A program made the position numbers and the translations under genes. DNA of 64,000 nucleotides from a virus: the IMG/VR virus record IMGVR_UViG_3300029720_000418, positions 3,344-67,343 of that record. The stretch is one strand, 5' to 3'. The notes beneath the pieces are model-generated. The model was not told the origin of the DNA, searched no databases, and saw only the letters and a program-made list of their open reading frames with translations. Shown in pieces: positions 3,759 to 64,000 of the stretch. The first letter of the stretch is position 1. Each line of letters starts with the position of its first letter.

Positions 3759-3804
3759 GAGGGCTTCGGCTCTCTTATTTTTCAATAAGAAAGGAGATGA
3801 TCTA

Positions 3805-4584: not shown

Positions 4585-4612
4585 TTCGCGAAAACAACAT
4601 TTACTATTATGA
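4585..4612 (+). promoter_or_regulatory. conserved promoter-like motif copy
   Basis: TTCGCGAAAACAACATTTACTATTATGA. Confidence 0.5.
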
Positions 4613-4636
4613 AAAATGCAAAAGGAGGGTCTTAAT

Positions 4637-4801: not shown

Positions 4802-4890
4802 TTTTCAAATAGAGGATTCAATGGAAATATTGGGTCTTCTATTTTTTCAGCACGAAGACATCTGGAATCAATGATATTTTGATAGCGGGA

Positions 4891-4919
4891 TTCGCACGAA
4901 ATACATTGGCTATTATGGA
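4891..4919 (+). promoter_or_regulatory. conserved promoter-like motif copy
   Basis: TTCGCACGAAATACATTGGCTATTATGGA. Confidence 0.45.
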
Positions 4920-4936
4920 AAGGAGGTAAGCTATCT

Positions 4937-5110
4937 ATGAAAGAAAAGTTTAATTCAACGACAGTTTTGAGCGCCGTTGTAACTGCGATGGGAGTGATTG
5001 GAACATTACTTTCATTTAAGGTTCAGAACGATGATCGGGAACTGTTGAAGGAAGAATTAAAAGAAGAGCTTAGAGAAGAGCTTAGCAACGAAGATAAAGA
5101 GGAGTCCTAA
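4937..5110 (+). CDS. small membrane peptide (57 aa) with an EELKEELREEL acidic tail
   Basis: RBS AGGAGGTAAG. Promoter copy at 4891-4919. Ends in the GAGGAGTCCTAA terminator stem. Confidence 0.4.
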   Translation: MKEKFNSTTVLSAVVTAMGVIGTLLSFKVQNDDRELLKEELKEELREELSNEDKEES

Positions 5111-5149
5111 CACGGGCTCTTCTTTTATATTTGATAGGAGGAATCAAAC

Positions 5150-5929
5150 ATGAGTAAAGAATCATTTGCGAGATTTGTGAAAAGCACAAAAAGAGGTCTC
5201 GTAAAACACAGTCCGGAAATCTTAACCGGATTAGGAATCGCAGGAATGATATCATCTGTCGTTCTTGCAGCAAAAGCAACACCTAAAGCACTTCAGTTGA
5301 TTGAAGAAGCGAAGGATAAGGCGGATACAGACAAGCTTACAGTACCAGAAACAATCAAGGCAGCATGGAAGCCATATATTCCAGTTGTACTTACATGTGG
5401 TGCATCCGTAGCTTGTATCATTGGTGCCAATACGGTAAATACACGTCGTAATGCTGCTCTTGCTACAGCATATGAGCTCTCGAGAAATGCTCTGACCGAG
5501 TATAAGGAGCGTGTTGTAGAGGAGATCGGTAAGGAAAAGGAACAGAAGATACAGGAAAAGGTTGCTCAGAAAAAAGTAGACAATACACCTGTTACATCCG
5601 AGGTTATTGTAACTGGAGGCGGGGACATATTGTTCCTTGAACCTGTATCAGAGAGATATTTCAAATCCGATGTTGAGACTATTCGTAGAATCATCAACGA
5701 TTTGAACTATCGATTAATGAATGGCAGCGAGGAGTATGTATCGTTGAGTGATTTCTATGATGAAGTCGGTTTGACTCATACGGCAATCAGTAATGATATT
5801 GGGTGGAATTTGAATCATGATGGTCAGATATCGGTCAGCTTGCCCGCAACAAAGACAGACAAGGGAGAGCCATGCCTGATGTTGGATTATCATGTAGCAC
5901 CGCGGTACGATTATTCAAAATTATCGTAA
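5150..5929 (+). CDS. paralog B of the two-TM membrane protein family
   Basis: RBS GGAGGAAT. N- and C-terminal similarity to 3805-4584 and 7534-8466 is visible by eye. Confidence 0.65.
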   Translation: MSKESFARFVKSTKRGLVKHSPEILTGLGIAGMISSVVLAAKATPKALQLIEEAKDKADTDKLTVPETIKAAWKPYIPVVLTCGASVACIIGANTVNTRRNAALATAYELSRNALTEYKERVVEEIGKEKEQKIQEKVAQKKVDNTPVTSEVIVTGGGDILFLEPVSERYFKSDVETIRRIINDLNYRLMNGSEEYVSLSDFYDEVGLTHTAISNDIGWNLNHDGQISVSLPATKTDKGEPCLMLDYHVAPRYDYSKLS

Positions 5930-5957
5930 TTCGCGAAAAATACAAGCACTATTATGA
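5930..5957 (+). promoter_or_regulatory. conserved promoter-like motif copy
   Basis: TTCGCGAAAAATACAAGCACTATTATGA. Confidence 0.5.
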
Positions 5958-5992
5958 CAGAGTAAAAAATTATATTTAAGGAGGACGAAACT

Positions 5993-6298
5993 ATGTCGAG
6001 AAACAATGTTAAGAACGAGGAAGTAAAGGATGTCGAGGTTGTCGACGAGAAGGATGTTGAAGTTGTAGACAACAACGCAACTGATGAAAACTCAAAGGCT
6101 GATGCCAAGGAGGAATCAAAGGTTAAGAAGATCTTAAATAAGATCAAGAAACCGGTTTCCTACATTGGTGCGGCAGTTGGTGGATTCGCAGTAGCGATGT
6201 TGATCTCAGCAGCAAGACAGGACGAAGATGATCAGGATGGACTGTACTACCTTGAAGGAGACAAAGAGGATGACAGTAGCAAAACAACTGAAGAGTAA
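5993..6298 (+). CDS. acidic/lysine-rich small protein with C-terminal TM segment
   Basis: RBS TAAGGAGG. Promoter copy at 5930-5957. Confidence 0.5.
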   Translation: MSRNNVKNEEVKDVEVVDEKDVEVVDNNATDENSKADAKEESKVKKILNKIKKPVSYIGAAVGGFAVAMLISAARQDEDDQDGLYYLEGDKEDDSSKTTEE

Positions 6299-6377
6299 TT
6301 TGTACGATCAGTCAGAAGGGTGATGCCTATACAAGGCATTTCCCTTTTTCTTTTTTTTTTTGAAGGAGGTTATGTCT

Positions 6378-6569
6378 ATGTATAGATACATATTTGAAGG
6401 TCAGGTTTCAGAATCAAACCATCTTATTACAAATAGATGGAGAGGTGAAACTTGGGCAAATTCAGAAGCCAAAGCCAGAAATAATTTGGCTTATCAATTT
6501 AAGAAAGCCAGTAACAGACCATCGATGGCAAAAATCGTGTTACATGGTCCGATTGTGAAGGCAAGCTAA
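6378..6569 (+). CDS. hypothetical protein (63 aa)
   Basis: RBS GAAGGAGG with an ATG at spacing 8. Confidence 0.45.
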   Translation: MYRYIFEGQVSESNHLITNRWRGETWANSEAKARNNLAYQFKKASNRPSMAKIVLHGPIVKAS

Positions 6570-6582
6570 AGGAGGGTGACAG

Positions 6583-7203
6583 ATGAGTTTAGACATTGAA
6601 TGCAAACCTAACTCACACAAGGCAAAGCAGGAGGCAGCAACAAAAAAGGGTGCTCCGAAGATTAAAAAGGTAGTATCCGGAACTGTCAAAACAAAAAAGA
6701 AGAAAGGAGTAAGTAAGCTTAAGGAAGCATTGATCGCTGATAGTGCAAAAGACGTTGGTTCTCATGCATTTTTGGATGTACTGATTCCAGCAATGAAGAA
6801 GGCATTTTCTGATATTATCAAGGACGGTGTCGACATGATTTTGTACGGCGAAACTCGTGGACGGAAAAGTAGCTCAAACGCTTCTTATGTGTCATATCGA
6901 ACATATTCGGACAGAGATCGAGATAGAAGAGATGATCGCAGATCTTCAAATTCTATATTTAATTTGGACGATATTATCTTGGAATCTCGAGATGATGCAA
7001 ATGATGTATTAGATGCAATGGGCGATCTGATTGAAACTTATGAATCTGTGAGCGTTGCTGATTTATATGATTTGATCGGCATCGATGTGTCCGGTAGATA
7101 TACGTACAACGACTATGGATGGACGAGTCTTAGAAATGCAGATATTGTCTCAGTACGTGATGGATATTGGATCAAGCTTCCTAGACCAAGACCAATTAAG
7201 TAG
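6583..7203 (+). CDS. hypothetical protein: K-rich N-terminus, RD-repeat linker, C-terminus related to the paralog family
   Basis: RBS AAAGGAGGG. The C-terminal LYDLIGID...YNDYGW resembles FYDEVGL...IGW of 5150-5929. Confidence 0.55.
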   Translation: MSLDIECKPNSHKAKQEAATKKGAPKIKKVVSGTVKTKKKKGVSKLKEALIADSAKDVGSHAFLDVLIPAMKKAFSDIIKDGVDMILYGETRGRKSSSNASYVSYRTYSDRDRDRRDDRRSSNSIFNLDDIILESRDDANDVLDAMGDLIETYESVSVADLYDLIGIDVSGRYTYNDYGWTSLRNADIVSVRDGYWIKLPRPRPIK

Positions 7204-7214
7204 GAGAGATACAC

Positions 7215-7529
7215 ATGAATGATATTTTGAAATCTGAATATTCAGAACAGTTTGATAAGGAACGAAAGAGCAGGATTGAAATTTCGTTTCATAAATATGG
7301 TTCAGCAAGAGATAACTTTGCAAGCGGCAGAGTGGACGCACTTGCTACTGCTGAGTTATGTCTGGACGCATTTAAGAAAGATCATAACAGCGAGCATTTG
7401 ATCGATGCTGCAAATTATTTGATGTTCCGGTTTAAGTATCCTATGCCGGGAGATCATTTTACACCGACAGACTCGAGCGGAAGTGTCGGAACAGTTGGTA
7501 CACCAATAAATATGGAAAAGGAGATTTAA
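7215..7529 (+). CDS. hypothetical protein (104 aa)
   Basis: RBS TAGGAGAG. Tightly packed with its neighbours. Confidence 0.5.
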   Translation: MNDILKSEYSEQFDKERKSRIEISFHKYGSARDNFASGRVDALATAELCLDAFKKDHNSEHLIDAANYLMFRFKYPMPGDHFTPTDSSGSVGTVGTPINMEKEI

Positions 7530-7533
7530 TATT

Positions 7534-8466
7534 ATGAAGAATGATTTGAAAAATAAGATGACTCGGTCATTATGTAAGGCAAAGTTTAAGGTTAAAAAGC
7601 ATAGTCCAGAGATCTTGGTTGTTGCAGGCGTGATTGGTACGGTGACAAGTGCTGTGATGGCATGTCGCGCTACAACAAAGCTGAGTAAGATTCTCGATGA
7701 GGCGAAAGAGACAGAGAAGACAATCTCTGAAGGAATGGAAAGTGGATATATCGCAGATCAGGAATACACAGAGGAAGACGGCAAGAAGGATCTCAGAATC
7801 ACAAAGGTTCAGACTGGATTAAAGGTTGTAAAGCTGTATGCACCAGCTGTTATCCTTGGCGGATTATCAATCACAGCCATGCTGACATCTAACAATATTC
7901 TCAGAAAGAGAAACGTATCACTTGCAGCGGCATATGCAGCAGTAGATAAGAGTTTCAAGGAATATCGTGGCAGAGTAAAGGAACGTTTCGGTGAAGAGCT
8001 GGACAAGGAGCTTCGTTACAACATCAAGGCGAAGGAAATCGAAGAAGTAGTTAAGGACGAGAAGACCGGTAAGGAAAAGGTTCAGAAAAAGATCGTGAAC
8101 GTTTCTGATTTTGATGATTGCAGCGAGTACGCAAAGTTTTATGATTGCGGTTGCACTGGATGGACGAAAGATCCAGAATTGAATTTGATGTTTCTTAGAA
8201 AACAGCAGGATTTCTTGAATGATCGGTTAAAGGCTGAGGGTTATCTGTTCTTGAATGACGTGTATGATGCTCTTGGCATTCAGAAAACAAAGATTGGTCA
8301 GATTGCAGGTTGGATTTACGATGAAAAGAATCCAGTCGGAGATAACTATATCGATTTCGGAATTTATGACACTCATCGTGAGGCAAATAGAAGATTTGTA
8401 AACGGTCTTGAGAGAACAATTCTTCTTGATTTCAATTGTGATGGTGACATTCTGGACATGATGTGA
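7534..8466 (+). CDS. paralog C of the two-TM membrane protein family
   Basis: RBS AAAGGAG. Has the KKHSPEILVVAGVIG N-terminus and the IGQIAGW C-terminal motif. Confidence 0.65.
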   Translation: MKNDLKNKMTRSLCKAKFKVKKHSPEILVVAGVIGTVTSAVMACRATTKLSKILDEAKETEKTISEGMESGYIADQEYTEEDGKKDLRITKVQTGLKVVKLYAPAVILGGLSITAMLTSNNILRKRNVSLAAAYAAVDKSFKEYRGRVKERFGEELDKELRYNIKAKEIEEVVKDEKTGKEKVQKKIVNVSDFDDCSEYAKFYDCGCTGWTKDPELNLMFLRKQQDFLNDRLKAEGYLFLNDVYDALGIQKTKIGQIAGWIYDEKNPVGDNYIDFGIYDTHREANRRFVNGLERTILLDFNCDGDILDMM

Positions 8467-8552
8467 ATGACCGGACTCGATAATATTGGGTCTGGAAACC
8501 CATATCGAGATATGTTTGACTATTCAAGGTTTAGCATGTAAGGAGGGCACAT

Positions 8553-8774
8553 ATGAAAGGAAGAGATTTAATCATTTATATTCTTGAAAATCATCTCGAG
8601 GATGAGGATGTGTTAAGTGATTTGAAGAAACTTGGATTATATTCTGTAAGAGAAGTGGCAGCTTTGAACAATGTTGGCGAAGCAACTGTTAAAGCATGGT
8701 GTAGTTTTGGAAGATATAATTATACCACAATTGATGACAGAATATATATCTGGTTGCCAGAAGGAGGTAAGTAA
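8553..8774 (+). CDS. hypothetical protein (73 aa)
   Basis: RBS TAAGGAGGG. Confidence 0.5.
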   Translation: MKGRDLIIYILENHLEDEDVLSDLKKLGLYSVREVAALNNVGEATVKAWCSFGRYNYTTIDDRIYIWLPEGGK

Positions 8775-8776
8775 AA

Positions 8777-9360
8777 TGAACAATGCGATTGAAAAAATTG
8801 CTATGTTTGTCGTTGGAGCCGCAACAGGCTCCTTTGTAACATGGCGAATCATTAAATCAAAGTATGAGCTGGTAGAAAACGGCGAGATTACAGTATATCC
8901 TGCCGAGGAAAAGGATGCGGAAGAGCCAGAGGAAACAGTCGAAGAGAATCCGGAAACCGAAGACAATGATGGAGAACCCGCATTCTCGGCTGAAGAGAAA
9001 AAAGAAGGCGAAAAGGTAATCAAAGACCTTAAATATCGAACATATTCCAACGGCGGAAGTAAAAAAAAACGGAAAAAATCAGTGGATGATGACGACGAAA
9101 TGTTTCCTTATGTTATTCCGCCAGAAGCTGTTGGCGACACTGGTTACGACCTTGTAAATCTCACATTATATTCGAACGGCGTTCTGGTGGATGATCTCGA
9201 CGACGAAGTGATTGAAGACGCAGAACTGCTTATTGGCAATTATGCTATCGATCGTATCGGTGAGTATGAGCCAGATATTATTCATGTAAGAAACGACGAG
9301 CTTCAGAGAGAATATGAGATCTGTCGTGTTGACGAGGAATATGAAACAACGGAGGAATAA
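8777..9360 (+). CDS. highly acidic protein with N-terminal TM (possible DNA-mimic-type early protein)
   Basis: ATG 8 nt after GGAGGTAAG. Very high D/E content (EEPEETVEENPETEDNDGE, DDDDE). Confidence 0.5.
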
Positions 9361-35337: not shown

Positions 35338-35715
35338 ATGAGCGAAGTCACAAATGCGAACGACAGCATTCTTACATCAATCAAGAAGATTCTTGGAATA
35401 CCAGAAGAGCATGAACACTTTGATGCGGATATCATTATGCATATCAACACAGTTTTTATGATTCTCAATCAACTTGGTGTCGGACCTGCTTCTGGTTTTA
35501 AGATTCTGGATAAAACTACGATGTGGGACGACTATTTGAAAGATGATAGTCAGTTAGAAGCTGTGAAATCTTATATGGGCTATAAAGTTCGATTGATGTT
35601 TGACCCTCCATCAAGCTCAGCCATCACAGAGTCAATTAATCGTGTTGTTAGTGAGCTTGAATGGCGAATACTTGTGATGGTCGAAAGTAAAAATTCTCGA
35701 GAGGAGGAATCATGA
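35338..35715 (+). CDS. hypothetical protein (125 aa)
   Basis: ATG 7 nt after GAGGAGG. A terminator at 35291-35320 precedes it. Confidence 0.5.
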   Translation: MSEVTNANDSILTSIKKILGIPEEHEHFDADIIMHINTVFMILNQLGVGPASGFKILDKTTMWDDYLKDDSQLEAVKSYMGYKVRLMFDPPSSSAITESINRVVSELEWRILVMVESKNSREEES

Positions 35716-36347
35716 TGTACGAATATGTATTATGCCATCATGGTGTTCTTGGTATGAAATGGGGTGTCCGTAGATACCAGAATGCTGATGGAAGTCTTAC
35801 GTATGCTGGAAAGAAACGAGCATTGAAAATCCAGAATAAATATACAAATTTTACGGAGAATCAAAAGTATCGAAAGAAGAATGGCGACTATACATATGCC
35901 GGTCGTAAGAAGTCTTTGAAGATGCGAGAGAAGTATTCAGCTGTTACTGGCGGAAAGAAGTTGACAAAGTTTGTTCCACCATCACAGCCAGCAAGTTCTG
36001 GAAAACCCAAAACATTAGCAGAAATGTCAAACAAAGAGATCGCAGATAAGATCGATAGAATTAGATTGGAGAATACTCTTAAATCACTTACTCCGCAGAA
36101 AGTTTCAAAAGGTAAAAAATTTGCAGATGGGATGAAGTCGTTAGCGGTTTCGACATTGAAAGGTCCTGCAACAAAAATAGCAAGCGAGTATATCGAAAAG
36201 AAATTACGATCAAAACTTGATTTAGGAGATCCGAATACTAAGAAAAAAGAGTCAGAAAAATTACAGCAGGAAATGTTGGATGCTAGAAATAGATATAATA
36301 TTGAAAACTTCACAAAGTTGTATAACGACTTGAAAAATAAGAAATAG
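35712..36347 (+). CDS. lysine-rich basic protein, HHGVxGxKWGVR family member 2
   Basis: N-terminal LCHHGVLGMKWGVRRY. RBS GAGGAGGAA. Confidence 0.6.
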   Translation: MMYEYVLCHHGVLGMKWGVRRYQNADGSLTYAGKKRALKIQNKYTNFTENQKYRKKNGDYTYAGRKKSLKMREKYSAVTGGKKLTKFVPPSQPASSGKPKTLAEMSNKEIADKIDRIRLENTLKSLTPQKVSKGKKFADGMKSLAVSTLKGPATKIASEYIEKKLRSKLDLGDPNTKKKESEKLQQEMLDARNRYNIENFTKLYNDLKNKK

Positions 36348-53013: not shown

Positions 53014-55539
53014 ATGGCTAATTCGCCACGTATCACAGGTTTCGGAACGGTAGACCCCAAAGGAACTATGTTATATGCCACATGGTCGTGGCCATATGAC
53101 CATATCGACCATTTCGAAGTAAAATGGGAGTATAATATGGGCGCTGCCATAAATGATGATGGTAACGTAGTTTGGATTGTTGGAAATTCTGGAACTACAA
53201 CAGAGAAAACATCCACCTACAGTATACCTAGTGACGCAAGAGCAGTAAGGTTTAAGGTAAAACCAGTAGCACAAACGCATGAGGTAAACAAAGTTCAAGT
53301 TGCATATTGGAATGCTGATTGGTCTGTAGAAAAGACTTATTGGAATACACCAGAAGAAGAAAGAATTCAGGTGCCAGATGTTCCTACAGTATCAATTGAC
53401 AAGTATACGATCACAGCAAAAATTGGCGGTAAAGAATTGAATACCAATCGTGTTCAGTTTGAGCTTTGGGCACCGGGGTATTATCTTGACACATCTTACT
53501 CTCGTAAAACAGTTATGTTGCTTCAAGATAACGCAGCATCTTGTACATTCAACATAGTACCGGGATATATCTATAAAGTTAGATGTAGAAGTTTGAATGG
53601 TGATCTTGCAGCAAATTCTCCAATTATAGAAGACTGGTGCAGTGATTGGTCAGACTTTTCAGAAGAAATAAAATCTGCACCGGCCGCCTCTGGCGGAATA
53701 ACGACTTGCCGAGCGGAATCTGAAACTTCTGTATATCTTGTATGGTCGGCAGCCACGGGAGCGAAAACATACGAAATTGAATACTCACCGAATAAAGATT
53801 ACTTTGACAGGACAGATCAGACTACTAAACAATCAGGAATTGAAAATTCGTATTATTTGGTGGTTGGTCTGGAAACAGGACAGGAGTATTTCTTCAGAGT
53901 GAGAGCTGTTAATGACCAGGGTGAATCTGCGTGGTCTGGTGTAGTGTCTGTTGTAATAGGTAAGTCACCAGCCGCGCCGACCACATGGTCGTCGACTACC
54001 ACTTTAATTAGCGGTGAGAAATTGATGTTATATTGGGTTCATAATTCAGCGGATTCATCAAGTCAGACGTATGCCGAACTTGAGATAATAATCAATGGGA
54101 AAAAGCAAACTCAAACAATCAAGAATGATAGATCAGACGACGATAAGGATAAGACGAGCTCTTACGAGTTAGACACGTTAAGTTTAACCGAAGGCGCTAC
54201 AATACAATGGCGAGTTAGAACCGCAGGAGTCACAAATAAGTATGGAGATTGGTCAGTACAGCGAGAAATAAAAGTGTACGCTCCACCAACATTAAAGTTG
54301 AATTTATCAGATGCATACAACAATGATTTATCAATTCTTACTTCATTTCCGTTTCATATTTCTGGTATTGCGGGACCAAATACTCAAGTTCCAACAGGAT
54401 ATCATGTAACTATTAAAGCTATGAGTTCTTATGAGACTATCGATAACATCGGTAATCAGAGAATTGTGAGTGCCAATCAAGAGGTATTTTCTAAATTTTA
54501 TGATACTAAAACATCTCTTGATATTACACTTTCAGCGAATGATGTCGACCTGGTGAACAATGTTTCATATCGAGTTGAAGTGGTGGTATCTATGAACACG
54601 GGTCTTACATGTACAGAAACTCGCATCTTTCGGGTTCAATGGTTTGAATATGATTTGACACCAAATGCACAGATAACATTTGATAGTAAAACCATGTCCA
54701 CATACATCAATCCATATTGTGAAAGATATATGATCACAGCCTACCGAGTTGATTATTCGGAGGAAACGGGATACGAAAAGACAGAAGAAGAGGTTGAATT
54801 AGTCAGAACATTGTATCTTCCAACCAGAGAACGAACCACAACGGGTGAAGATGTGATGCGGGCTGTTTTAACAACAGGCGAAGAAGCATATGTTTGTTAT
54901 TCGGTCAAAAAGGAGCTGCCATCTAACTGTACATTATCCGTGTATAGACGCGAATTTGATGGTACGTTTACAGAGATAGAAACTGGACTTGATAATTCGA
55001 AAACAACGTATGCGACAGATCCACACCCATCATTGGATATAGCGAGATATAGAATCGTAGCCATATTAAAAGATACTGGTGCTGTTGGGTATTCGGATTT
55101 AACTGGGTATCCCATTGGCGAAAAGGCTGTAATTATACAGTGGGATGAGAAGTGGTCTTGGTTTGATACTGATGATGCAGGAGAATTAGCCACACCGCCT
55201 TGGTCTGGCTCCATGCTAAGGCTTCCTTATAATATAGATGTCTCTGATAAAAACAGTCCAGACAGTACATTGGTGAAGTATCAAGGACGAACTTCTCCGG
55301 TAAGTTATTACGGTACACAGGTAACAACATCATCTTCATGGAAGGTAGATATTCCTAAAACGGATAAGGAAACGTTATATGCCATAAGACGATTATCTAT
55401 ATGGAAAGGAGATGTCTATGTCCGAGAACCATCTGGAACAGGGTATTGGGCTAATATATCAGTATCATATAACGTAAACCATGATTCATTGGTCATTCCG
55501 GTGTCTTTTGAAATTACAAAGGTCGAAGGAGGAGTATAA
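53014..55539 (+). CDS. tail/baseplate protein with fibronectin type III domains (evolved distal-tail-protein candidate)
   Basis: Immediately follows the tape measure protein. FN3-like segments (SVYLVWSAATGAKTYEIEYS...YFFRVRAVNDQGESAWS). Confidence 0.6.
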   Translation: MANSPRITGFGTVDPKGTMLYATWSWPYDHIDHFEVKWEYNMGAAINDDGNVVWIVGNSGTTTEKTSTYSIPSDARAVRFKVKPVAQTHEVNKVQVAYWNADWSVEKTYWNTPEEERIQVPDVPTVSIDKYTITAKIGGKELNTNRVQFELWAPGYYLDTSYSRKTVMLLQDNAASCTFNIVPGYIYKVRCRSLNGDLAANSPIIEDWCSDWSDFSEEIKSAPAASGGITTCRAESETSVYLVWSAATGAKTYEIEYSPNKDYFDRTDQTTKQSGIENSYYLVVGLETGQEYFFRVRAVNDQGESAWSGVVSVVIGKSPAAPTTWSSTTTLISGEKLMLYWVHNSADSSSQTYAELEIIINGKKQTQTIKNDRSDDDKDKTSSYELDTLSLTEGATIQWRVRTAGVTNKYGDWSVQREIKVYAPPTLKLNLSDAYNNDLSILTSFPFHISGIAGPNTQVPTGYHVTIKAMSSYETIDNIGNQRIVSANQEVFSKFYDTKTSLDITLSANDVDLVNNVSYRVEVVVSMNTGLTCTETRIFRVQWFEYDLTPNAQITFDSKTMSTYINPYCERYMITAYRVDYSEETGYEKTEEEVELVRTLYLPTRERTTTGEDVMRAVLTTGEEAYVCYSVKKELPSNCTLSVYRREFDGTFTEIETGLDNSKTTYATDPHPSLDIARYRIVAILKDTGAVGYSDLTGYPIGEKAVIIQWDEKWSWFDTDDAGELATPPWSGSMLRLPYNIDVSDKNSPDSTLVKYQGRTSPVSYYGTQVTTSSSWKVDIPKTDKETLYAIRRLSIWKGDVYVREPSGTGYWANISVSYNVNHDSLVIPVSFEITKVEGGV

Positions 55540-56598
55540 ATGACTAATTGGTTAGAGTCGATGACTCAGACATTTGAGTATTATACTGTTGACCCAAATA
55601 CTTGGATGGATGACGAGCGGATGCGAAACGTGACTGCGTGTAAAATTACGCGAGACAGTACATCGGATACATTGGCGTCGGCTACATTTGATGTGAAGGA
55701 TTTCACTGGAGAGTGCTACATTCGAGTGTACCTTATTACAATTCAAAATGGAGAAAGATCGAAGTATCCATTAGGCACATTCTTAGTGCAAACCCCTTCG
55801 TCAGATTATGACGGAAAGGTGAGCACAGTATCTATGGATGCGTATTCCCCATTATTGGAATTATCTGAGAAAAAACCAGACATAGGATATTCGTTATTTA
55901 AAAACGATAACATCGTGGAAAATGCATATAGGATTGCCAGAAGCAATATGAGAGCCCCGGTTGTAAGAGTCGAAACAAACGACAAATTGACCGGGGATTT
56001 TGTTTCGTCAACGGATGATACATGGCTTGCATTTCTTTCCGATCTATTAAGCAATGCAAAATATGAATTGGATCTTGACGAGCTAGGAAAGGTACTGTTT
56101 GCACCAAAGCAAGAACTTGTTGCATTACAACCAGTATGGACATACAACGACGACAACAGTTCGATTTTATACCCGGAAGTAAGTTTGAGTCATGATTTGT
56201 ATGGGGTTCCAAATGTTGTAGAGGTTCTTTATTCGAGCGGTAATGACAATTACTATTCGAGAATCGTAAATGATGATGAAAACAGCCCCACATCAACAGT
56301 AAAACGAGGACGAGAAATTGTGTATCGTGAAACTTCACCGTCTTTTGCAGGTTCTCCTTCACAGGCTCAGGTCGATGAGTATGCTGAGAAACTATTGAAA
56401 AGCTTATCTTCGGTTGAATACACAGTGAGTTATACACATGCTTACTGTCCAGTCAGAGTTGGTGACTGTGTGCGACTGAATTATTCAAGAGCTGGATTGG
56501 AAAATGTAAAAGCTAAAGTGATAAGTCAATCAATAACATGCGAGAGCGGGTGCCCGGTATCCGAAAAAGCAGTATTTACAACAAATTTATGGAGGTGA
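55540..56598 (+). CDS. tail protein (Dit/Tal-N-terminal-like)
   Basis: ATG 1 nt after the previous stop. 352 aa. Assignment by position within the baseplate module. Confidence 0.5.
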   Translation: MTNWLESMTQTFEYYTVDPNTWMDDERMRNVTACKITRDSTSDTLASATFDVKDFTGECYIRVYLITIQNGERSKYPLGTFLVQTPSSDYDGKVSTVSMDAYSPLLELSEKKPDIGYSLFKNDNIVENAYRIARSNMRAPVVRVETNDKLTGDFVSSTDDTWLAFLSDLLSNAKYELDLDELGKVLFAPKQELVALQPVWTYNDDNSSILYPEVSLSHDLYGVPNVVEVLYSSGNDNYYSRIVNDDENSPTSTVKRGREIVYRETSPSFAGSPSQAQVDEYAEKLLKSLSSVEYTVSYTHAYCPVRVGDCVRLNYSRAGLENVKAKVISQSITCESGCPVSEKAVFTTNLWR

Positions 56599-56604
56599 TA
56601 AGTA

Positions 56605-59283
56605 GTGACATTGTCTAATGATTTGGCGAGTCAATTCGCAAAATTACTAAACGATGGCAACGATAAAAAGCCAAAAGAGACATCTATGTATGGAACATTT
56701 GTCGAGAGTGATAAAAAAAAATACGTGAAGTTGGATGGATCTGAGTTGCTTACTCCTGTAATACAGACTGCTGCGGCTAAGGATGGAGAGCGTGTCACGG
56801 TTACAGTAAAGAATCGTACTGCCGTTGTTACAGGAAACCTGTCGTCTCCCGCTGCTAGATTAGGAGACGTGGAAGATCTCTCAGCAAAAGTACTGTCTGT
56901 CGAAGAGCTCATGGCGAAGAAAGTATCAACTGATGAACTTGAGGCTACGATTGGTAGAATAGAAACTCTCGAAACTGACAATGCGACGATTAGAGATACT
57001 CTGACAGCTCAATCAGCAAAGATCGATGATCTCGAAGCTGATAATGCGACCATTAATGGCACTCTGACTGCTCAATCAGCAAAGATTGACAATCTCGAAA
57101 CAACTAAGCTTAGTGCAGAGATTGCTGAAATAACCTATGCAACAATCACGAATTTGGATGCAACAAATGTAGCGATACGTAATTTGAATGTTGATTATGG
57201 CAAGTTTAAAGATGCAACAGTTGAGTCGTTTAGGGCAACGGAAGCTTCTATTGAATCGTTAAATACAACGAAATTATCGGCAGAACAAGCAGATATTCGA
57301 TATGCAAATATTGATTTCTCGAATATTGGTAAGGCTGCGATTGAACAGTTCTATGCAACATCCGGCATTATTAAAGATTTGGTTATCGGAGATCAGACAG
57401 TCACGGGAGAATTGGTTGGCGTTACAATCAAGGGTGATCTGATTGAGGGTAATACCATTAAAGCAGATAAACTGGTGGTAAAGGGTTCTGACGGACTATA
57501 TTACAAGCTCAATGTATCTGCTGAGACCGTAGAAACAGAGCAGACAGATCAAAATAGCTTGAATGGAAACATTATCACGGCAAAGTCTATAACCGCTACT
57601 AAGATTAGCGTAGAAGATTTAGTCGCTTTCGATGCAACAATCGGCGGTTTTAATATCACCAACAACGCTATATATTCGGGAGTAAAAAGTTCTGTCGACA
57701 ACACAACAAGAGGAATCTATCAGGATAAGGATGGACAGATTGCTTTTGGCGATGGAGATAGTTTCCTAAAGTATTTTAAGGATAAAGACGGAAAATATAA
57801 GCTGGCAATATCAGCAGACAACATTAAATTTAGCGCAAGTAATAAAGATCTGGATACGGTGCTTGGTTCCACAATAACCAGTGCCATCGAGGAATTCTAT
57901 TTATCTAAATCGCCTACGTCATTATCTGGCGGATCATGGTCAAAAACACAGCCAACATGGACAGAAGGAAAGTATATATGGAGAAGAACTGCGGTAACAT
58001 ATGGAGATGGAAGTTCTGAATATATGCCATCGCCAAATGGTGTGTGCATTACTGGTAATACCGGAGCCAAAGGAGATACTGGTGAGGGTATCAAATCTAC
58101 GGCAGTAACATACCAAGCTGGAGCATCAGGAACTACGGTTCCAACTGGGACGTGGTCTGCGTCGATACCGGCTGCGGACACATCAAAGCCATATCTTTGG
58201 ACGAGGACAATTATTACCTACACTGATAATACGACATCTACATCATACAGTGTAGGTGCTACACCAGAAGGAATGGTTCAAAAGAAAAAGATTATTTCTG
58301 AAATCAACCAGTCGGCAGAGGAGATTTCGATCAAGGCTGAAAAAATCAGTCTCGAAGGTCTTGTCACTGCCAATCAGAATTTTAAGGTGCTGGAAGATGG
58401 CTCAATAGAGGCAGTTAATGGTAAGTTTACTGGCGAGATATATGCTACGAGCGGTAAATTCGAGGGCGAAATAGTCTCATCTAAGGCGACTATTACTGGC
58501 GGAAGTGTAAATATTACTAGCGATGGAAGTTATTCGGCATATATGACTATAACAGCCACTAATATACCTACTGGTTATGGTGAACATATGGGAACAGTTA
58601 CAACAAATATTGATGCCGGTGGAATGAAAATAACATCTGGTGATTTCTTATCCCATTATGGAGGTTTAGGGCTAGATGTAACTGAAGGAACTACAACGTA
58701 TTTTTCAGCAGGCCCCGACAGAACATATGCACTTGTATTAGAAACGCTTGAAGCGCATGTGACCGGTAACCTCACCGTCTCCGGAACAATCAATGGTGTG
58801 AAATGGAATTGGTCTGGACAAGGCGGACAGCCAAGCTGGTTGTGGGGCGGAAACGATGGTGCAAACATGTATGTATATAATCCATCGAACTTTAGCGTAA
58901 ATTATGCCAAATCTGCGAATTATGCTAATAGCGCAGGAGGTATTTCGGCTCCCATATATGGATATGACAAGAATGTTAATATTACTTGTGGAGGATGGAG
59001 CACGCCGGCTAGTGTGACACTTCCTGCCGGAACATATATCGGAATGGTGTTTGCAAAGATGTATGGAACTCCTGCGTCCAGAATGGTTATGGTTTTTTCA
59101 ACTAATAGTGGAGCTACTGATGCGGGGGCTTATATGTCAGATGATAATATGGATAGGGCATGCTGTAGTTCTCCGGTTGTTATAAACATCAGTGGTAACA
59201 CTAATTTTTATTTGAGGGTATACAACAGTATGTCAGGAGTTAGAGCATGTCATTGCGGGTGGTACTTAGTAAAAGTTAAATAA
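56605..59283 (+). CDS. tail fibre / receptor-binding protein
   Basis: GTG start after GGAGGTGA. Repeated coiled-coil units (DNATIxxTLTAQSAKIDxLE). Short collagen-like GNTGAKGDTGEG stretch. Beta-rich C-terminus. Confidence 0.6.
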   Translation: MTLSNDLASQFAKLLNDGNDKKPKETSMYGTFVESDKKKYVKLDGSELLTPVIQTAAAKDGERVTVTVKNRTAVVTGNLSSPAARLGDVEDLSAKVLSVEELMAKKVSTDELEATIGRIETLETDNATIRDTLTAQSAKIDDLEADNATINGTLTAQSAKIDNLETTKLSAEIAEITYATITNLDATNVAIRNLNVDYGKFKDATVESFRATEASIESLNTTKLSAEQADIRYANIDFSNIGKAAIEQFYATSGIIKDLVIGDQTVTGELVGVTIKGDLIEGNTIKADKLVVKGSDGLYYKLNVSAETVETEQTDQNSLNGNIITAKSITATKISVEDLVAFDATIGGFNITNNAIYSGVKSSVDNTTRGIYQDKDGQIAFGDGDSFLKYFKDKDGKYKLAISADNIKFSASNKDLDTVLGSTITSAIEEFYLSKSPTSLSGGSWSKTQPTWTEGKYIWRRTAVTYGDGSSEYMPSPNGVCITGNTGAKGDTGEGIKSTAVTYQAGASGTTVPTGTWSASIPAADTSKPYLWTRTIITYTDNTTSTSYSVGATPEGMVQKKKIISEINQSAEEISIKAEKISLEGLVTANQNFKVLEDGSIEAVNGKFTGEIYATSGKFEGEIVSSKATITGGSVNITSDGSYSAYMTITATNIPTGYGEHMGTVTTNIDAGGMKITSGDFLSHYGGLGLDVTEGTTTYFSAGPDRTYALVLETLEAHVTGNLTVSGTINGVKWNWSGQGGQPSWLWGGNDGANMYVYNPSNFSVNYAKSANYANSAGGISAPIYGYDKNVNITCGGWSTPASVTLPAGTYIGMVFAKMYGTPASRMVMVFSTNSGATDAGAYMSDDNMDRACCSSPVVINISGNTNFYLRVYNSMSGVRACHCGWYLVKVK

Positions 59284-59344: not shown

Positions 59345-59725
59345 ATGAAAAAATACATTACAACATTAAGCAAACTGTTTGATATTCGTCAGTTGATCGC
59401 CAATAATGGCATCTTAGATCTTGCGTTCTCGCGTAAGGCAGGACTGTCAGTTGCACGAAATATTAAGAAAATCGACAATGAACTTGCAGAGTATGACAAG
59501 TCTCGTGATGAGCTGATTCGAAAGTATTCTGATAACGGAGTTACTATGAACCGTTCGAATCCGAACTGGAACGAGTTCATCAAAGAGTTTAATGAGATCG
59601 GTTCAGTCGAAGCGTCATTGGAAATCAACATGATTACAGATGATGATCTGCCGGAGAACATTACGCCATCGGCATGCATGGCAATCGAATTCATGATCGA
59701 AGATCCAGTAGAAATTGTAGAATAG
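59345..59725 (+). CDS. hypothetical protein (126 aa)
   Basis: RBS GCGAGGAG. Confidence 0.5.
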   Translation: MKKYITTLSKLFDIRQLIANNGILDLAFSRKAGLSVARNIKKIDNELAEYDKSRDELIRKYSDNGVTMNRSNPNWNEFIKEFNEIGSVEASLEINMITDDDLPENITPSACMAIEFMIEDPVEIVE

Positions 59726-59738
59726 GGAGGAAGTCAAA

Positions 59739-60017
59739 ATGGATATTAAAGATTTTGTTATTATTATACCAATCATGGTTATTTGTTATCTTATCGGTAT
59801 GGGGCTTAAAGCATGGAGCTATGTGAATGATGTATGTATCCCGGTGTTAGTCGGAGCTATTGGCGGTGTTCTTGGTGTTGTCGCAATGTTTACAATGCCG
59901 AGTTTCCCAGCAAATGACATACTTACGGCAATTGCTATTGGTATTATGAGTGGGTTAGCGTCCACAGGAAGCAATCAGATTTACAAACAGTTACAGAAGT
60001 TTTTCAAAGGGGAGTAG
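59739..60017 (+). CDS. holin
   Basis: 92 aa with 2-3 TM segments and a charged C-terminus. RBS GGGAGGAAG. Located at the end of the late operon. Confidence 0.55.
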   Translation: MDIKDFVIIIPIMVICYLIGMGLKAWSYVNDVCIPVLVGAIGGVLGVVAMFTMPSFPANDILTAIAIGIMSGLASTGSNQIYKQLQKFFKGE

Positions 60018-60020
60018 TCG

Positions 60021-60323
60021 ATGATCAAATTCACAGTATCTTCAGACACGATACTCCTTATTTGCTCGTTGATAGCAGCCTTATGGGGGGTGTATAAAAT
60101 CGTGAAGGAAGTAAAGAAACCAAGTAAAGATTTACAGGAGACTGTAGATAAGCATTCAAAACTTCTTGATTCGGACAATGTTCGACTCAAGGAGGTTGAA
60201 GAATCCAACAAGATGATTCTACAATGCTTATTAGTAATAATCAATCACGATATTACAGGTAACGGAATCGACAATCTCAAAGACACAAGAGATAAGCTCC
60301 AGCAATATTTGATTGATAAGTAG
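60021..60323 (+). CDS. lysis-associated membrane protein (N-terminal TM + coiled coil)
   Basis: Tightly coupled to the holin gene. Topology resembles holin-associated or XhlA-like proteins. Confidence 0.45.
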   Translation: MIKFTVSSDTILLICSLIAALWGVYKIVKEVKKPSKDLQETVDKHSKLLDSDNVRLKEVEESNKMILQCLLVIINHDITGNGIDNLKDTRDKLQQYLIDK

Positions 60324-60335
60324 GGAGGTCGCATC

Positions 60336-60632
60336 ATGAATGAAATTAGTAAGAAGATTATTATGGATGAAATCAAGGGATTAATGAGTGGTATTTCAGC
60401 CATCGTTAGTTCTTCAGCAATGGTAGCAATGCCAATGGGGTATTCGAATGATTCAGCAGTAACAGTTTCAAGTGTTTCCGAAATTACTACAAAAGCAAAA
60501 AGTATTAAAGCTTACGTAGCTAAGATTGAGGAAAAGACAAAGCTCCTTGAAGAAGATTTAGCATTTGATAATACGGAAGTAGAATTCGATCAGACAAGCA
60601 CCGAGGATTTAACATCTGAATCAAACAAATAA
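60336..60632 (+). CDS. hypothetical protein (98 aa)
   Basis: RBS GGGAGGTCG. This is the last gene before the terminator at 60641-60675. Confidence 0.45.
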   Translation: MNEISKKIIMDEIKGLMSGISAIVSSSAMVAMPMGYSNDSAVTVSSVSEITTKAKSIKAYVAKIEEKTKLLEEDLAFDNTEVEFDQTSTEDLTSESNK

Positions 60633-60640
60633 CAAAGACA

Positions 60641-60675
60641 AAGGCTCCGTCATATCGACAGGGCCTTTTCTTTTT
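60641..60675 (+). terminator. terminator at the end of the late/lysis operon
   Basis: AAGGCTCCGTCATATCGACAGGGCCTT followed by TTCTTTTT. Confidence 0.55.
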
Positions 60676-60835
60676 ACTAATGTTTAGTTTCAAGTAATGG
60701 CAATAAAAAGCGGTTTATTTGACCATTATTTGACACTTTATACCGTATAAATGGCTTAAAACCTAGACTTTCTGTTTCTGTTGAGGAAGCAGCAAAGGCT
60801 GGAAAGTTCTAGAGACAATGAGCCGTGCATAACGG

Positions 60836-60895
60836 ATAAAAAAATGGCTGGTCAAGCTTGCTTGAAACCAGTCATTTTTTTATCCGTTTATATAG
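60836..60895. repeat. long inverted repeat / stem-loop (~20-bp arms)
   Basis: CGGATAAAAAAATGGCTGGT ... ACCAGTCATTTTTTTATCCG, with one mismatch. Confidence 0.6.
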
Positions 60896-61065
60896 GGCGA
60901 ATGCCCGAGACCGACTCGAAGCGAAGCGCAGAGGAGGTTGCACGGCGAATGATTTCCTGTTTATTTTTTATTCTAAGTATTCTCTAAGCCATTCCACAAC
61001 GTTTGCCGTGTATGTGGATTCGGTTATATCTTGTATATTATTTTCCACAAAATGTAAATCTGGGC

Positions 61066-61380
61066 TCGCGGGAGAGAAATTAAGCGGAAAAACCCACGAC
61101 GTGGGCGTAGGCGGAGAAAAGCAAGCAGAAAAACCCAAACCGGAAGCTAATCGGAAAGATACGGAGATGAAGCTGGGTGTGAGGGAGAGAAATTAAGCAG
61201 AACCCCCCACGATATGGGCGTAGGTGGAGAAAAGCAAGCAGAAAAACCCAAACCGGAAACTGATCGGAAAGATACGGAGATGAAACTGGGTGTGAGGGAG
61301 AGAAATTAAGCAGAAAAACCCACGACGTGGGCGTAGGCGGAGAAAAGCAAGCAAGAAAACCCAAACAGGAAATTAATATA
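61066..61380. repeat. ~115-bp tandem repeat, about 2.7 copies, each with a CCCACGACGTGGG hairpin
   Basis: Units begin near 61071, 61183 and 61296 (GGGAGAGAAATTAAGC...GGCGTAGGCGGAGAAAAGCAAGCAGAAAAACCCAAACCGGAA...). Confidence 0.65.
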
Positions 61381-61522
61381 GTAAATATCTGGAAATCAGG
61401 GTTGAAATCATATCCATGACAGAAGAAAATTACACATTGTTATTTCCATATATGTATGATAGTGTTAAAATGAATGAAAGAATTTTACAACAATCCTTTG
61501 TATATTTGGGAGGAGGGAAAAT

Positions 61523-62233
61523 ATGTCATTAAAGTTAAAAGATGAGGATTCCACAAAACGCATGAAAGATATGCAGGAAGAATTAAAAGATCCTTCACTG
61601 GGGGAGTTTAGCGATTTAGAACAGGATCCATATGTCATTGAATCCAAAAGGACAACTCCAATCGATAAGCCTGTTTATCAACCGGATGGAAAGCTTTCAT
61701 CTGCAATAGATAGAAATCCATATATTTTGTCAGAGGAAAAACAAGCGCGAATCTTTGGAGAAGATTTAGGTGACAAAGAAATAAGAAAAAAGTCCGTCCG
61801 TAAGGAAGTGATGATAGTTATGTTTGTCGGGCTGGCTTTGTTGTTCGCGGGACTTGCGGCATATGTACATAATGATCTGTTTTTAAGAAAAGCTGAGACC
61901 GTACCAGGTATTGTAACAGAAAAACGTATGCATAGAAATCATGCAACTTGCACCATCTTTGTGGATTATGAAGTAGATGGAAAAACATATAATGAGATAT
62001 ATGTGGGTGATGGACATGATATGCAGATAGGGCAGAAGGTAACGGTATATTATGATCCGGAGAAACCAACCAAAATAACGGATGGAAGGAAAATCCCGAC
62101 AATGTCTGTCTATCTTGTTATAATAGGAGGGGCTTTGTTCCTGATAGGCGGTTATCTCGTATTCTGGATGAACCAGAATCCTGACAAGGGAATTGAGATT
62201 TATAACAGGATATTCAAGAAGCGTGACAAATAA
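61523..62233 (+). CDS. DUF3592-like membrane protein (host-like)
   Basis: Two TM helices flank a beta domain (GIVTEKRM....CTIFVDYEVDGKTY....VGQKVTVYYDPEKP). RBS GGGAGGAGGG. Confidence 0.55.
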   Translation: MSLKLKDEDSTKRMKDMQEELKDPSLGEFSDLEQDPYVIESKRTTPIDKPVYQPDGKLSSAIDRNPYILSEEKQARIFGEDLGDKEIRKKSVRKEVMIVMFVGLALLFAGLAAYVHNDLFLRKAETVPGIVTEKRMHRNHATCTIFVDYEVDGKTYNEIYVGDGHDMQIGQKVTVYYDPEKPTKITDGRKIPTMSVYLVIIGGALFLIGGYLVFWMNQNPDKGIEIYNRIFKKRDK

Positions 62234-62488
62234 ACAGAATCTGTGTGTAATAGAAGAAGTTTTGTAAAACTTTAAACTATAAGTACATAGATAATTAATC
62301 GATTCCTTAATGAAAAATGCATTATTGTACAGAAAATGTACGAAAAATGCAGAAAAATGTAATAGTGATTTTCACACATACATGGTACAATATTGAATAG
62401 ATGCAGGAATGTGAATTTTGCACCAAAGAAAATATGCGATCTGAGTCGCATAGCAATCAATTAACTTGTTGTTAGGGAGGGTTTTTGT

Positions 62489-64000
62489 ATGTCAGGTTCA
62501 ACAATTGCTATTATTATCATTATCGTGGCATTGCTGGTCATTTTATTTACCAGTTATGTCAAATCACCACCGGATAAGGCGTATATCATTTCCGGTTTAA
62601 GAAAGACACCGAAGATTCTGATTGGTAAAGCAGGCTTGAAGCTTCCGTTCTTCGAGCGGAAGGATGAACTGTTGATCAAGCAGATCAGTATCGATATCAA
62701 GACGGATGATTATGTTCCGACACTGGATTTCATCGGTGTTAACATTGATGCAGTTGCGAAAGTTAAGATCCGTACGGATGAAGAAGGTATGCAACTTGCC
62801 ATGAAGAATTTCCTGAATATGAAGGAACCGCAGATTATGGAAGCACTGGTGGATTCTCTGCAGGGTAATATGCGTGAGATTATCGGTACGATCAGTCTGA
62901 AGGAGTTGTGTAACGATCGTAAGTCCTTCGGTGATCAGGTGCAGGAGAAGGCGCAGGTGGATATGAATCGTCTGGGTATTGAGATTATTTCCTGCAACAT
63001 CCAGCATGTAGAGGATCAGAATGACCTGATTATCGCGCTTGGTCAGGATAACATGGCAGCAATCCAGAAGAATGCAAGTATCGCCAAGGCAAACGCAGAC
63101 CGTGATGTAGCGATCGCACAGGCACAGGCGAGAAAAGAAGCGAACGATGCAAAGGTATTATCCGATACGGAAATTGCCGTGAAGCAGAATGAGCTTTCTA
63201 TCAAGAAGGCAGAATTAAAGACAATCGAAGATACGAAGAATGCGGAAGCAGATGCGGCTTACGAGATTCAGAAGGAAGCACAGCGTAAGACAATCGAGGT
63301 TACAAAGACCGAGGCAGATATCGCACGTCAGGAGAAGGAAGTTGACCTGAAGAAGAAGGAAGCCGAGGTTATGGAGCAGTCCCTCGATGCGGATATTCGT
63401 AAGAAAGCGGAGGCGGACAAGTTCGCAAGACAGCAGCAGGCAGATGCGGAGCTTTACAAGCGTCAGAGAAATGCCGAGGCAGATAAGTTTGAGAAGCAGC
63501 AGGAAGCTGAGGCGAAGAAGGCACAGGCAGAGGCAGAGCTTTTCGCAAAGCAGCAGGAGGCAGCAGGTATCCGTGCAGTCGGCGAGGCAGAGGCGAAGGC
63601 AATCGAAGCCAAAGGTCTTGCAGAGGCAGAAGCCTTAGAGAAGAAAGCCGAAGCGATGAAGAAGTATGGTCAGGCAGCGATGGTGGAAATGATCGTGAAG
63701 GCATTGCCGGAGATGGCAAAGGCAATCGCAGAGCCACTCTCTACAATCGACAAGGTTACGATCATCGACGGCAACGGCGAAGGTTCCGGTGTCGGTTCGA
63801 TGGGGTCGTATGTGCCACAAGTCCTTGCAAAGACAATGGAGTCTGTGAAGGAAGTAACAGGTATCGATATCGCGGATATTATGCGTGCAAATACATACGA
63901 TGCAAAGGTTAACAAGAATGTGAACATCACAGGCCTGGATGGAATCAAGGTAGAAGCTCCTGCAGAGGCGGGAACTTCCGTAGATACAACTGTGGAGTAA
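62489..64000 (+). CDS. flotillin / SPFH (band-7) family protein
   Basis: N-terminal TM. SPFH domain. Long A/E/K-rich coiled-coil repeats (AEAEAKAIEAKGLAEAEAL). GC content is clearly higher than in the phage region. Confidence 0.75.
   Translation: MSGSTIAIIIIIVALLVILFTSYVKSPPDKAYIISGLRKTPKILIGKAGLKLPFFERKDELLIKQISIDIKTDDYVPTLDFIGVNIDAVAKVKIRTDEEGMQLAMKNFLNMKEPQIMEALVDSLQGNMREIIGTISLKELCNDRKSFGDQVQEKAQVDMNRLGIEIISCNIQHVEDQNDLIIALGQDNMAAIQKNASIAKANADRDVAIAQAQARKEANDAKVLSDTEIAVKQNELSIKKAELKTIEDTKNAEADAAYEIQKEAQRKTIEVTKTEADIARQEKEVDLKKKEAEVMEQSLDADIRKKAEADKFARQQQADAELYKRQRNAEADKFEKQQEAEAKKAQAEAELFAKQQEAAGIRAVGEAEAKAIEAKGLAEAEALEKKAEAMKKYGQAAMVEMIVKALPEMAKAIAEPLSTIDKVTIIDGNGEGSGVGSMGSYVPQVLAKTMESVKEVTGIDIADIMRANTYDAKVNKNVNITGLDGIKVEAPAEAGTSVDTTVE

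Follow-up and report, generated by a model that had tools for sequence, protein, structure and literature searches.

A phage attachment junction at the 3′ end of the GGGtGRT gene of Coprococcus hominis and the host tandem repeat beside it

When a prophage is recovered together with flanking bacterial DNA, the question arises as to exactly where the virus ends and the host begins. We addressed this question for positions 60676–61522 of a 64,000-nucleotide stretch of the virus record IMGVR_UViG_3300029720_000418 in IMG/VR (positions 3,344 to 67,343 of that record; the whole stretch is referred to here as the window). A first-pass annotation, made from the sequence alone, had placed the right boundary of a prophage in this interval, and suggested that the attR core, a host intergenic repeat family or both lie there; it drew attention to a strong stem-loop and a hairpin-containing tandem repeat that separate the last phage genes from genes for a DUF3592-like membrane protein and a flotillin. 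The features that it flagged are all present at the positions given or a few bases away, and none of them is due to chance. Comparison of attB, attL, attP and attR bears out the boundary. With high confidence, the interval holds the attR junction at which an integrated temperate tailed phage of about 64.3 kb, apparently still able to excise, gives way to intergenic DNA of its host, Coprococcus hominis. The attR core was found within it, at 60774–60811, although outside both of the flagged structures: it sits about 20 bp upstream of the stem-loop, in the tail of a host gene, and neither structure is the att site.

Host loci were obtained from contigs of an assembly collection that encode exactly the DUF3592 protein of the window (indexed in 6742 blocks of the collection), and ten 20-kb loci were returned. 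Eight of these are free of the prophage and run through genes for TGT, YajC and a 230-amino-acid (aa) protein into a gene for GGGtGRT, which leads directly into the stem-loop, the repeats, the DUF3592 gene and the flotillin gene. One locus (L007) carries the same prophage as the window and another (L006) carries a different element at that spot. Alignment to the empty sites, the check that the first-pass annotation had proposed, reveals the att core: the window is colinear with them and near-identical from 60774 onward, and the spacers vary solely by whole 113-bp units of the repeat. The 38-bp sequence GTTTCTGTTGAGGAAGCAGCAAAGGCTGGAAAGTTCTA is common to all four types of site in an alignment, and the flanks of this core are exchanged among attB, attP, attL and attR as site-specific recombination predicts (Table 1). 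An attB restored by excision would join the GGGtGRT gene directly to GAGACAATGAGCC. A further attR (L025) came from a scan of viral contigs. The DNA to the right of the core is 99.2–99.8% identical to that of C. hominis CLA-AA-H212.

The left end of the prophage was reached by a look-up of the 291-aa open reading frame (ORF) at 3709–4584. The attL contig (L018) reads from the host GGGtGRT gene through the core and the phage P′ arm to an integrase gene on the minus strand and the phage early genes. The integrase has 413 aa, with a PF00589 match and an N-terminal zinc ribbon, and lies 161 bp from the attL core (L018 and the attP contigs); its gene ends about 2.2 kb to the left of window position 1. 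An integrase had been expected beyond the left edge, and this is where it is found, adjoining attL. The accompanying statement that the window itself contains no integrase stands in so far as tblastn with the prophage integrase returns just a 27-codon relic, the ORFs of the window not having been otherwise scanned for recombinases. A 60,095-bp contig (L017/L028) has the attP core between the P arm, which comes after the holin gene, a 100-aa ORF and a 98-aa ORF, and the P′ arm, which leads to the integrase gene. The same attP join occurs in L027, a contig from a different metagenome sample that was found in the scan of viral contigs, and in both contigs the 98-aa ORF is contiguous with attP and the integrase. 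L028 matches the window at 1–247 (100% identity) and at 60158–60820 (99.1%), and because the attL core starts 3542 bp from window position 1 in this contig, the prophage has a length of about 64.3 kb. As judged from the contig sequences, these attP-type joins suggest excised or packaged DNA. Copies of ATTTGAC(C/A) start at 60719 and 60730 in the P arm, and four direct and two inverted copies occur in the P′ arm beside attL (L018 2745–2798); the density of this motif across the window is 1.2 per kb on both strands. The repeats in the two arms are likely arm-type sites to which the integrase would bind. Separately, a variant attP-like join was seen in two contigs (L019 1479–1604 and L020 75–200), in which a core with 3 mismatches ends a 41-aa ORF and a DUF6033 gene, not the holin region, lies upstream; the fusion of a DUF5906 gene to an ATP-binding cassette (ABC) permease gene in L019 makes this contig look chimeric.

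The target gene encodes a 336-aa GGGtGRT protein (PF14057 at E = 3e-195), and the core comprises its last 12 codons and the first two bases of its stop codon. This codon reads TAG in attB and attR but TAA in attP and attL. The attP site brings in its own version of these 12 codons, together with a stop codon and terminator, and so keeps the host GGGtGRT gene intact at attL; translation gives an identical C terminus in L001, which has no prophage, and in the lysogen L018. The phage tyrosine integrase would recombine the 38-bp attP core with its identical counterpart in the 3′ end of the gene. In the lysogen, GGGtGRT would then be completed at attL by the phage-borne core and its terminator supplied by the P′ arm of the phage, and the original tail would be orphaned at attR. 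The stem-loop is predicted to be the original terminator of the GGGtGRT gene, left at attR, as it consists of a hairpin and U-run just past the stop codon. It begins 10 nt past this codon in every prophage-free locus and is absent from attP. The inverted repeat with 20-nt arms that had been described at 60836–60895 is therefore real, but its arms measure 22 nt, are 95% complementary and lie at 60831–60852 and 60867–60888. With an A7 tract on the 5′ side of the stem and a T7 tract on the 3′ side, the terminator looks bidirectional; a simple terminator scan omitted it because the stem exceeds the limits of the scan.

Two other explanations of the junction have to be weighed. The stem-loop and tandem repeats lie directly 3′ of the last phage gene, and att arms of phages often bear repeats and hairpins; they might accordingly be phage DNA, an attP arm or regulatory region, with the true boundary to their right, just before DUF3592. 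We consider this practically untenable. Both structures are present and near-identical in the eight prophage-free loci, homology between the window and the empty sites begins already at 60774, and in the attP contigs, which lack stem-loop and repeats, the core leads into the P′ arm and integrase. The first-pass annotation had itself named flotillin-like genes inside circular phage genomes, and repeats present in virion DNA and absent from uninfected hosts, as contrary evidence; the units occur in prophage-free loci, and the attP contigs run from the last phage gene straight to the integrase with no stem-loop, repeats or flotillin gene. An assembly chimera, in which a free phage genome was misjoined to a host contig, has in its favour that an exact 38-bp copy of host sequence on the phage could mislead an assembler. 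It is nevertheless very improbable, as the identical attR join is found in separate assemblies (the window, L007 and L025), the matching attL join lies within a 137-kb contig (L018), and the phage terminase, indexed in 192 blocks of the assembly collection, is in 22 blocks with contigs of 0.2–1 Mb.

Some points weigh against an attR junction of an excision-competent phage followed by host DNA. The attL site and the integrase were read from L018 and L028 and not from the window's own left flank, and the overlaps are short but near-identical. The attP-type join could stem from a tandem double lysogen instead of free or circular phage DNA. No endolysin was recognised beside the holin, and a repressor was not searched for, so that the phage is at most putatively viable. 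Finally, ‘native host DNA’ is a relative term here: the block of core, stem-loop, integrase relic and units is duplicated around a restriction–modification island in some strains, a phage-like P′ arm replaces the stem-loop in a related metagenome-assembled genome (MAG), and the whole spacer may therefore descend from an older element.

Table 1. Coordinates of features at the attR junction and of related sites. Positions are those of the window unless a locus handle (L followed by a number) is given.
Feature	Location	Strand	Details
Holin gene	59739-60017	+	PF16079, E 9e-25; Pfam and PHROGs matches
Last prophage ORF	60336-60632	+	98 aa; follows the holin gene and a 100-aa ORF
Intrinsic terminator of the phage late operon	60634-60675	+	GGCUCCGUC...GACAGGGCC hairpin and U-run; -17.1 kcal/mol, z -5.7
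Candidate arm-type integrase-binding sites	60715-60739	+	Two direct ATTTGAC(C/A), 11 bp apart, phage P arm
attR core	60774-60811	+	38 bp, GTTTCTGTTGAGGAAGCAGCAAAGGCTGGAAAGTTCTA; prophage right end placed to within the core; attR also in L007, L025
Orphaned 3′ end of GGGtGRT	60774-60812	+	VSVEEAAKAGKF, stop TAG
Host stem-loop	60822-60898	+	-39.2 kcal/mol, z -8.5; 0/200 shuffles fold as well
Integrase fossil in host DNA	60947-61051	-	Last 27 codons of a tyrosine integrase; just before the units
113-nt array (host minisatellite)	61057-61169, 61171-61282, 61284-61391	+	Three near-full units; unit profile (nhmmer)
Candidate sigma-70-type promoter of the DUF3592–flotillin pair	61443-61471	+	TTTCCA, 17 nt, TG-n-TAAAAT; consensus scan, 9/12 matches, extended -10
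Ribosome-binding site	61509-61517	+	GGAGGAGGG
DUF3592 membrane protein gene (host)	61523-62233	+	236 aa; PF12158, E 6e-8
Flotillin gene (host)	62489-64000	+	503 aa; SPFH/Band 7 and Flot; Band_7 E 1e-18, Flot E 6e-8
attB	L001 9478-9515 and other prophage-free loci		0-1 mismatch to the core
attL	L018 2637-2674		Core copy in lysogen contig
attP	L017 2933-2970; also L027, L028		Core copy in phage contigs
Restriction–modification island	L062 1-9300; L073; L098; L050; L047; L080; L099
Diverged array	L041, L049, L101, L078		Gap between ETF-alpha and NPCBM-domain genes
Diverged array	L056, L081		Gap between glnA and HAD hydrolase genes
Diverged array	L069, L070		Inside cbi operon
GA-cis matches	L034 7568-7654; L038 2546-2632; L049 1720-1806; L055 1-63

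The assignment of the two downstream genes to a DUF3592-like protein and a flotillin agrees with Pfam, and the eight prophage-free loci of the ten returned identify them as host genes. The flotillin gene does not change position among the host loci and shares 99.8% identity with that of C. hominis CLA-AA-H212, and the sequence of the candidate promoter of the pair is likewise conserved in all host loci. We rejected flotillin as a phage gene: tblastn gave eight weak or short ‘phage’ records at 28–63% identity, none of which is this phage, and the attP contigs lack it. The shift in base composition that had been described at the boundary is carried by the flotillin gene, which stands out with a guanine-plus-cytosine (GC) content of 47.8%; ‘clearly different’ was an overstatement, the host part of the window having 43.0%, the phage part 38.4% and the DUF3592 gene also 38.4%. 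The gap between the DUF3592 and flotillin genes is longer by about 271 bp in the reference strain and many metagenome loci (window 62257–62296 compared with L024 5094–5404), and this extra DNA holds a strong hairpin and what seems to be a piece of a decayed ORF. The short allele is the one in the window, where a 10-bp repeat with 2.8 copies is also found at 62333–62361.

The relic of an integrase in the host DNA bears on the earlier history of the site. In tblastn, residues 384–410 of the prophage integrase align to 61051–60971 with 74% identity (E = 1.6e-6 against the whole window), and in blastn the similarity to the prophage integrase gene is 81% over 97 nt. All prophage-free loci share the fossil, which is what remains of an earlier element that had integrated at this att site. 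A related Lachnospiraceae MAG (L023; CAKREY010000003, 4877–5470) has a decayed version of the P′ arm, ATTTGAC repeats included, after the GGGtGRT stop codon, and then the integrase fossil, two units and hsdM; this arrangement looks like an older integration event preserved in place. In both L023 and L093, a phage-like P′ arm is in the place of the stem-loop, and a type I restriction–modification system is found instead of DUF3592. An island of about 8.5 kb without an integrase, which encodes the type I restriction–modification set HsdM, HsdS, DUF4238, HsdR and DUF4365, occupies the same att site in other loci, and in three of these, the C. hominis-type contigs L062, L073 and L098, a block made up of core, stem-loop, integrase fossil and units stands on either side of it. 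The 3′ end of GGGtGRT is therefore an integration hot spot where elements have accreted and decayed: no fewer than two element types use it, it retains an integrase fossil, and some strains have the island there as well.

These findings raise the possibility that an older integrative element once used this att site and that the spacer between the core and the DUF3592 promoter is its left end in a decayed state, in which case the repeats would come from that element. The position of the integrase 3′ fossil directly before the units, the succession of P′ arm with ATTTGAC repeats, fossil and units after the GGGtGRT stop codon in L023 and L093, and the occurrence of the core, stem-loop, fossil and unit block on both sides of the island in L062, L073 and L098 all argue for such an origin. 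By contrast, the diverged arrays examined in other bacteria have housekeeping genes as neighbours and neither an integrase fossil nor a core close by, and the block is in every one of about 56 C. hominis-type loci, which makes it host DNA as regards the present phage. On balance, we regard descent of the spacer from an older element as a real but lesser possibility. A related but more speculative reading is that integrative elements aimed at the GGGtGRT att site may carry such arrays and disperse them. Common ancestry of the regions upstream of DUF3592 and of hsdM was also considered, and was dropped after their alignment proved weak and gappy.

Other contigs show further arrangements at this site. 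In L006 (1–9250), the different element joins the host at almost the same core base and encodes a 182-aa resolvase, GmrSD_N, DUF3846 and DUF4314 proteins and a 549-aa protein without a Pfam match. A third type of left flank is joined via the core to the integrase side of the phage in L026 (1–4530), possibly as a tandem insertion, and L031 (17–2541) has three core copies within 2.5 kb. The contig ERZ791927.450 may carry the restriction–modification island twice.

The tandem repeat is an intergenic minisatellite, or variable number tandem repeat (VNTR), of head-to-tail units with a copy number that varies between strains. Tandem Repeats Finder reports a period of 113, with 2.7 copies, 89% matches and a score of 518 at 61070–61377; the array and copy count of the first-pass annotation thus hold, and its range of 113–115 bp narrows to 113. 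The perfect palindrome CCCACGACGTGGG that had been ascribed to each copy is found just in units 1 and 3, and unit 2 has CCCACGATATGGG. The unit is purine-rich, with two GAGAAA..AAGCAGAAAAACCCA sub-repeats, and 0 matches to a 39-mer from it would be expected by chance. A metagenome scan with a 23-mer from the unit gave 74 loci, which were pooled with the earlier loci for copy counts. Among 49 complete arrays upstream of DUF3592, there is 1 unit in 25, 2 in 8 and 3 in 16, and the lengths of the spacer between GGGtGRT and DUF3592 differ among strains by exact multiples of 113 bp. Slippage or unequal recombination would most likely account for the change between 1 and 3 copies. Lysogens have 1 unit (L007 and L025) or 3 (the window) and copy number is therefore independent of the phage; the attP contigs lack the array. 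One exact scan with a degenerate 26-mer found the unit at this locus alone in the C. hominis reference genome, and one related MAG also matched; an exact 36-mer from the unit had no match in a genome scan because its last base differs in the one-unit allele. The unit profile detected no further copies, either in the window or across about 20 kb of flanking host DNA. The search of the host genome for further copies that had been recommended was thus made with a single 26-mer, and the proposed host intergenic repeat family is confined to one locus in C. hominis on that scan, although diverged arrays do exist at unrelated loci in other bacteria.

These diverged arrays, of 2–5 units at 75–85% identity, occur at twelve metagenome loci in at least three other bacteria, and two contigs (L070 and L077) have two separate array sites each. 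In seven C. hominis loci, one unit of the same array holds an insert of about 86 nt that matches the GA-cis RNA (RF02987). The insert is on the purine-rich strand, between CGTGGG and AGGAAGAGAAAAGCAAGC of the unit; the scores are 75.7 bits in L034 and L038 and 81.3 bits in L049, which is from another bacterium, compared with a gathering score of 34.7. GA-cis belongs to the motif set of Weinberg et al. 2017, the main text of which (PMC5737381) is silent on it. In the window, positions 60000–62600 have no GA-cis match at E values of up to 1, and an Rfam search of the window gave just sub-threshold microRNA noise over hairpins.

As regards function, we lean towards a largely neutral, co-transcribed intergenic minisatellite, although the conservation of the unit across several bacteria, its co-orientation with neighbouring genes and its link to a structured RNA motif fit poorly with neutrality. 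These same observations could point to a functional transcribed RNA, a leader or stand-alone non-coding RNA of GA-rich modules with GA-cis as an optional insert, in which the number of units tunes DUF3592–flotillin expression or titrates a GGA-binding protein. The motifs TGGG, AAAACCCACG, GTGGG, AAAAGCAAGC, GAAAACCC and GGAAGCT are kept among units of 75–85% identity at unrelated loci in other bacteria. In five examined contexts (DUF3592, hsdM, ETF, glnA and cbi), the flanking genes have the purine-rich strand as their sense strand, and a sixth, L077, is mixed. GA-cis is embedded in the unit on this strand, and the L049 array is flanked by two terminator-like hairpins. Structure tells against such an RNA, as single units of the window fold no better than shuffles (z +0.4 on both strands), RNAalifold found no consensus structure in 36 diverse units (−0.37 kcal/mol), and the 13-nt palindrome, although conserved (91% of cells paired), shows a single compensatory change. 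Furthermore, the array of the window contains no GA-cis, a consensus scan found no convincing promoter upstream of it, and the number of units is free to vary from 1 to 3 among near-identical strains. The leading strand of Firmicutes has a purine skew, and co-orientation could simply reflect this. We consider a functional RNA unlikely and favour the neutral minisatellite over it. More speculative still is the proposal that the unit may be a building block of an undescribed, dispersed family of transcribed RNA repeats with GA-cis as an optional insert; strains would then switch DUF3592–flotillin by gaining or losing units, or the units would serve as a sponge for a GGA-binding regulator. A CsrA-type sponge was considered in view of the many GGA motifs.

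Other origins of the repeats were examined and set aside. Coding repeats do not fit a period of 113, which is not a multiple of 3, and the apparent mini-ORFs (such as ATG AAG CTG GGT GTG AGG GAG AGA AAT TAA) do not stay in frame in diverged units. Decayed integrase coding sequence is not supported, as no similarity to the integrase extends past the 27-codon relic. Elements of the miniature inverted-repeat transposable element (MITE) or repetitive extragenic palindromic (REP) type are not indicated either: no terminal inverted repeats or duplications were seen at the borders of the array, and the single palindrome is an internal 13-mer.

What the junction shows is ordinary lambda-style integration at a gene 3′ end, here in a phage–host pair that is new. 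Lambdoid-type insertion by a tyrosine integrase into a gene 3′ end, with a phage-borne replacement tail, is known from phage 21 and e14 in icd of Escherichia coli. As in that system, the core is common to attB, attP, attL and attR and overlaps the last codons of the host gene, the phage copy restores the frame, the integrase adjoins that junction and reads towards it, and direct-repeat candidate arm sites occur in both arms. The differences lie in the target (GGGtGRT, PF14057), the host (C. hominis), the phage and the integrase, which here has a predicted N-terminal zinc ribbon.

The array invites comparison with mycobacterial interspersed repetitive units (MIRUs), which are intergenic minisatellites of the VNTR type. 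Both consist of head-to-tail intergenic units of about 100 bp that are co-oriented with flanking genes, vary in copy number among strains (1, 2 or 3 here) and have related arrays at several loci. However, the C. hominis unit was found at one locus in the 26-mer scan, 113 is not a multiple of 3 with no conserved mini-ORF seen, and the 113-nt unit has no sequence relationship to MIRUs. With regard to GA-cis RNA, allelic arrays (L034 and L038) and those of another bacterium (L049 and L055) contain full-length matches, whereas the plain 113-nt unit shows no conserved secondary structure and the array of the window has no match. The island resembles the cis-mobilizable, att-flanked elements without an integrase (CIMEs) that have been described for the ICESt1/ICESt3 family of Streptococcus thermophilus, in that it lacks an integrase and is bracketed by two copies of the core and block, and the L006 element and this phage use the same core. 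Unlike in CIMEs, the structures are in other strains, where mobility of the island is a prediction, and the window keeps the integrase fossil alone.

These results leave the understanding of prophage integration unchanged. They provide base-exact attB, attP, attL and attR sites for a widespread temperate phage of C. hominis, a common human-gut bacterium, and these sites permit the clean excision of prophages from assemblies, the typing of lysogeny in metagenomes and induction assays by polymerase chain reaction (PCR). The 113-bp array is a ready VNTR strain marker and gives a genomic context for the GA-cis motif; only the repeat family, together with its GA-cis link, has some potential for discovery.

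The phage itself appears to be a recurrent prophage of C. hominis; among 50,697 deposited phage records, none is a close relative. All genes of the window are on the plus strand. Tail proteins are encoded at 53014–59283, followed by a 126-aa ORF, the holin gene and two small ORFs that end at 60632; no endolysin was recognized beside the holin at 59345–60632 using Pfam and PHROGs. The last of these ORFs, of 98 aa, has just weak matches to entries of unknown function in both databases, and no function could be assigned to it or to the 100-aa ORF before it. As the first-pass annotation had stated, the last late gene is followed by its terminator, and the hairpin of this terminator is also present in the attP contig L017. 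In the matching prophage of L007, the tape-measure protein has a match to a CW_7 cell-wall-binding domain. Small ORFs crowd the early region (1–9000), which also encodes three DUF6353 paralogues (291, 259 and 310 aa). Metagenome assembly of this region is poor, a 119-aa ORF (1849–2208) being found solely on contigs of less than 5 kb with variable neighbours. A look-up of the 211-aa ORF at 35712–36347 returned no record in the collection. Just upstream of the packaging genes, a 991-aa phage protein (31013–33988) has faint helix-turn-helix and sigma-70 region 4 matches in precomputed annotation.

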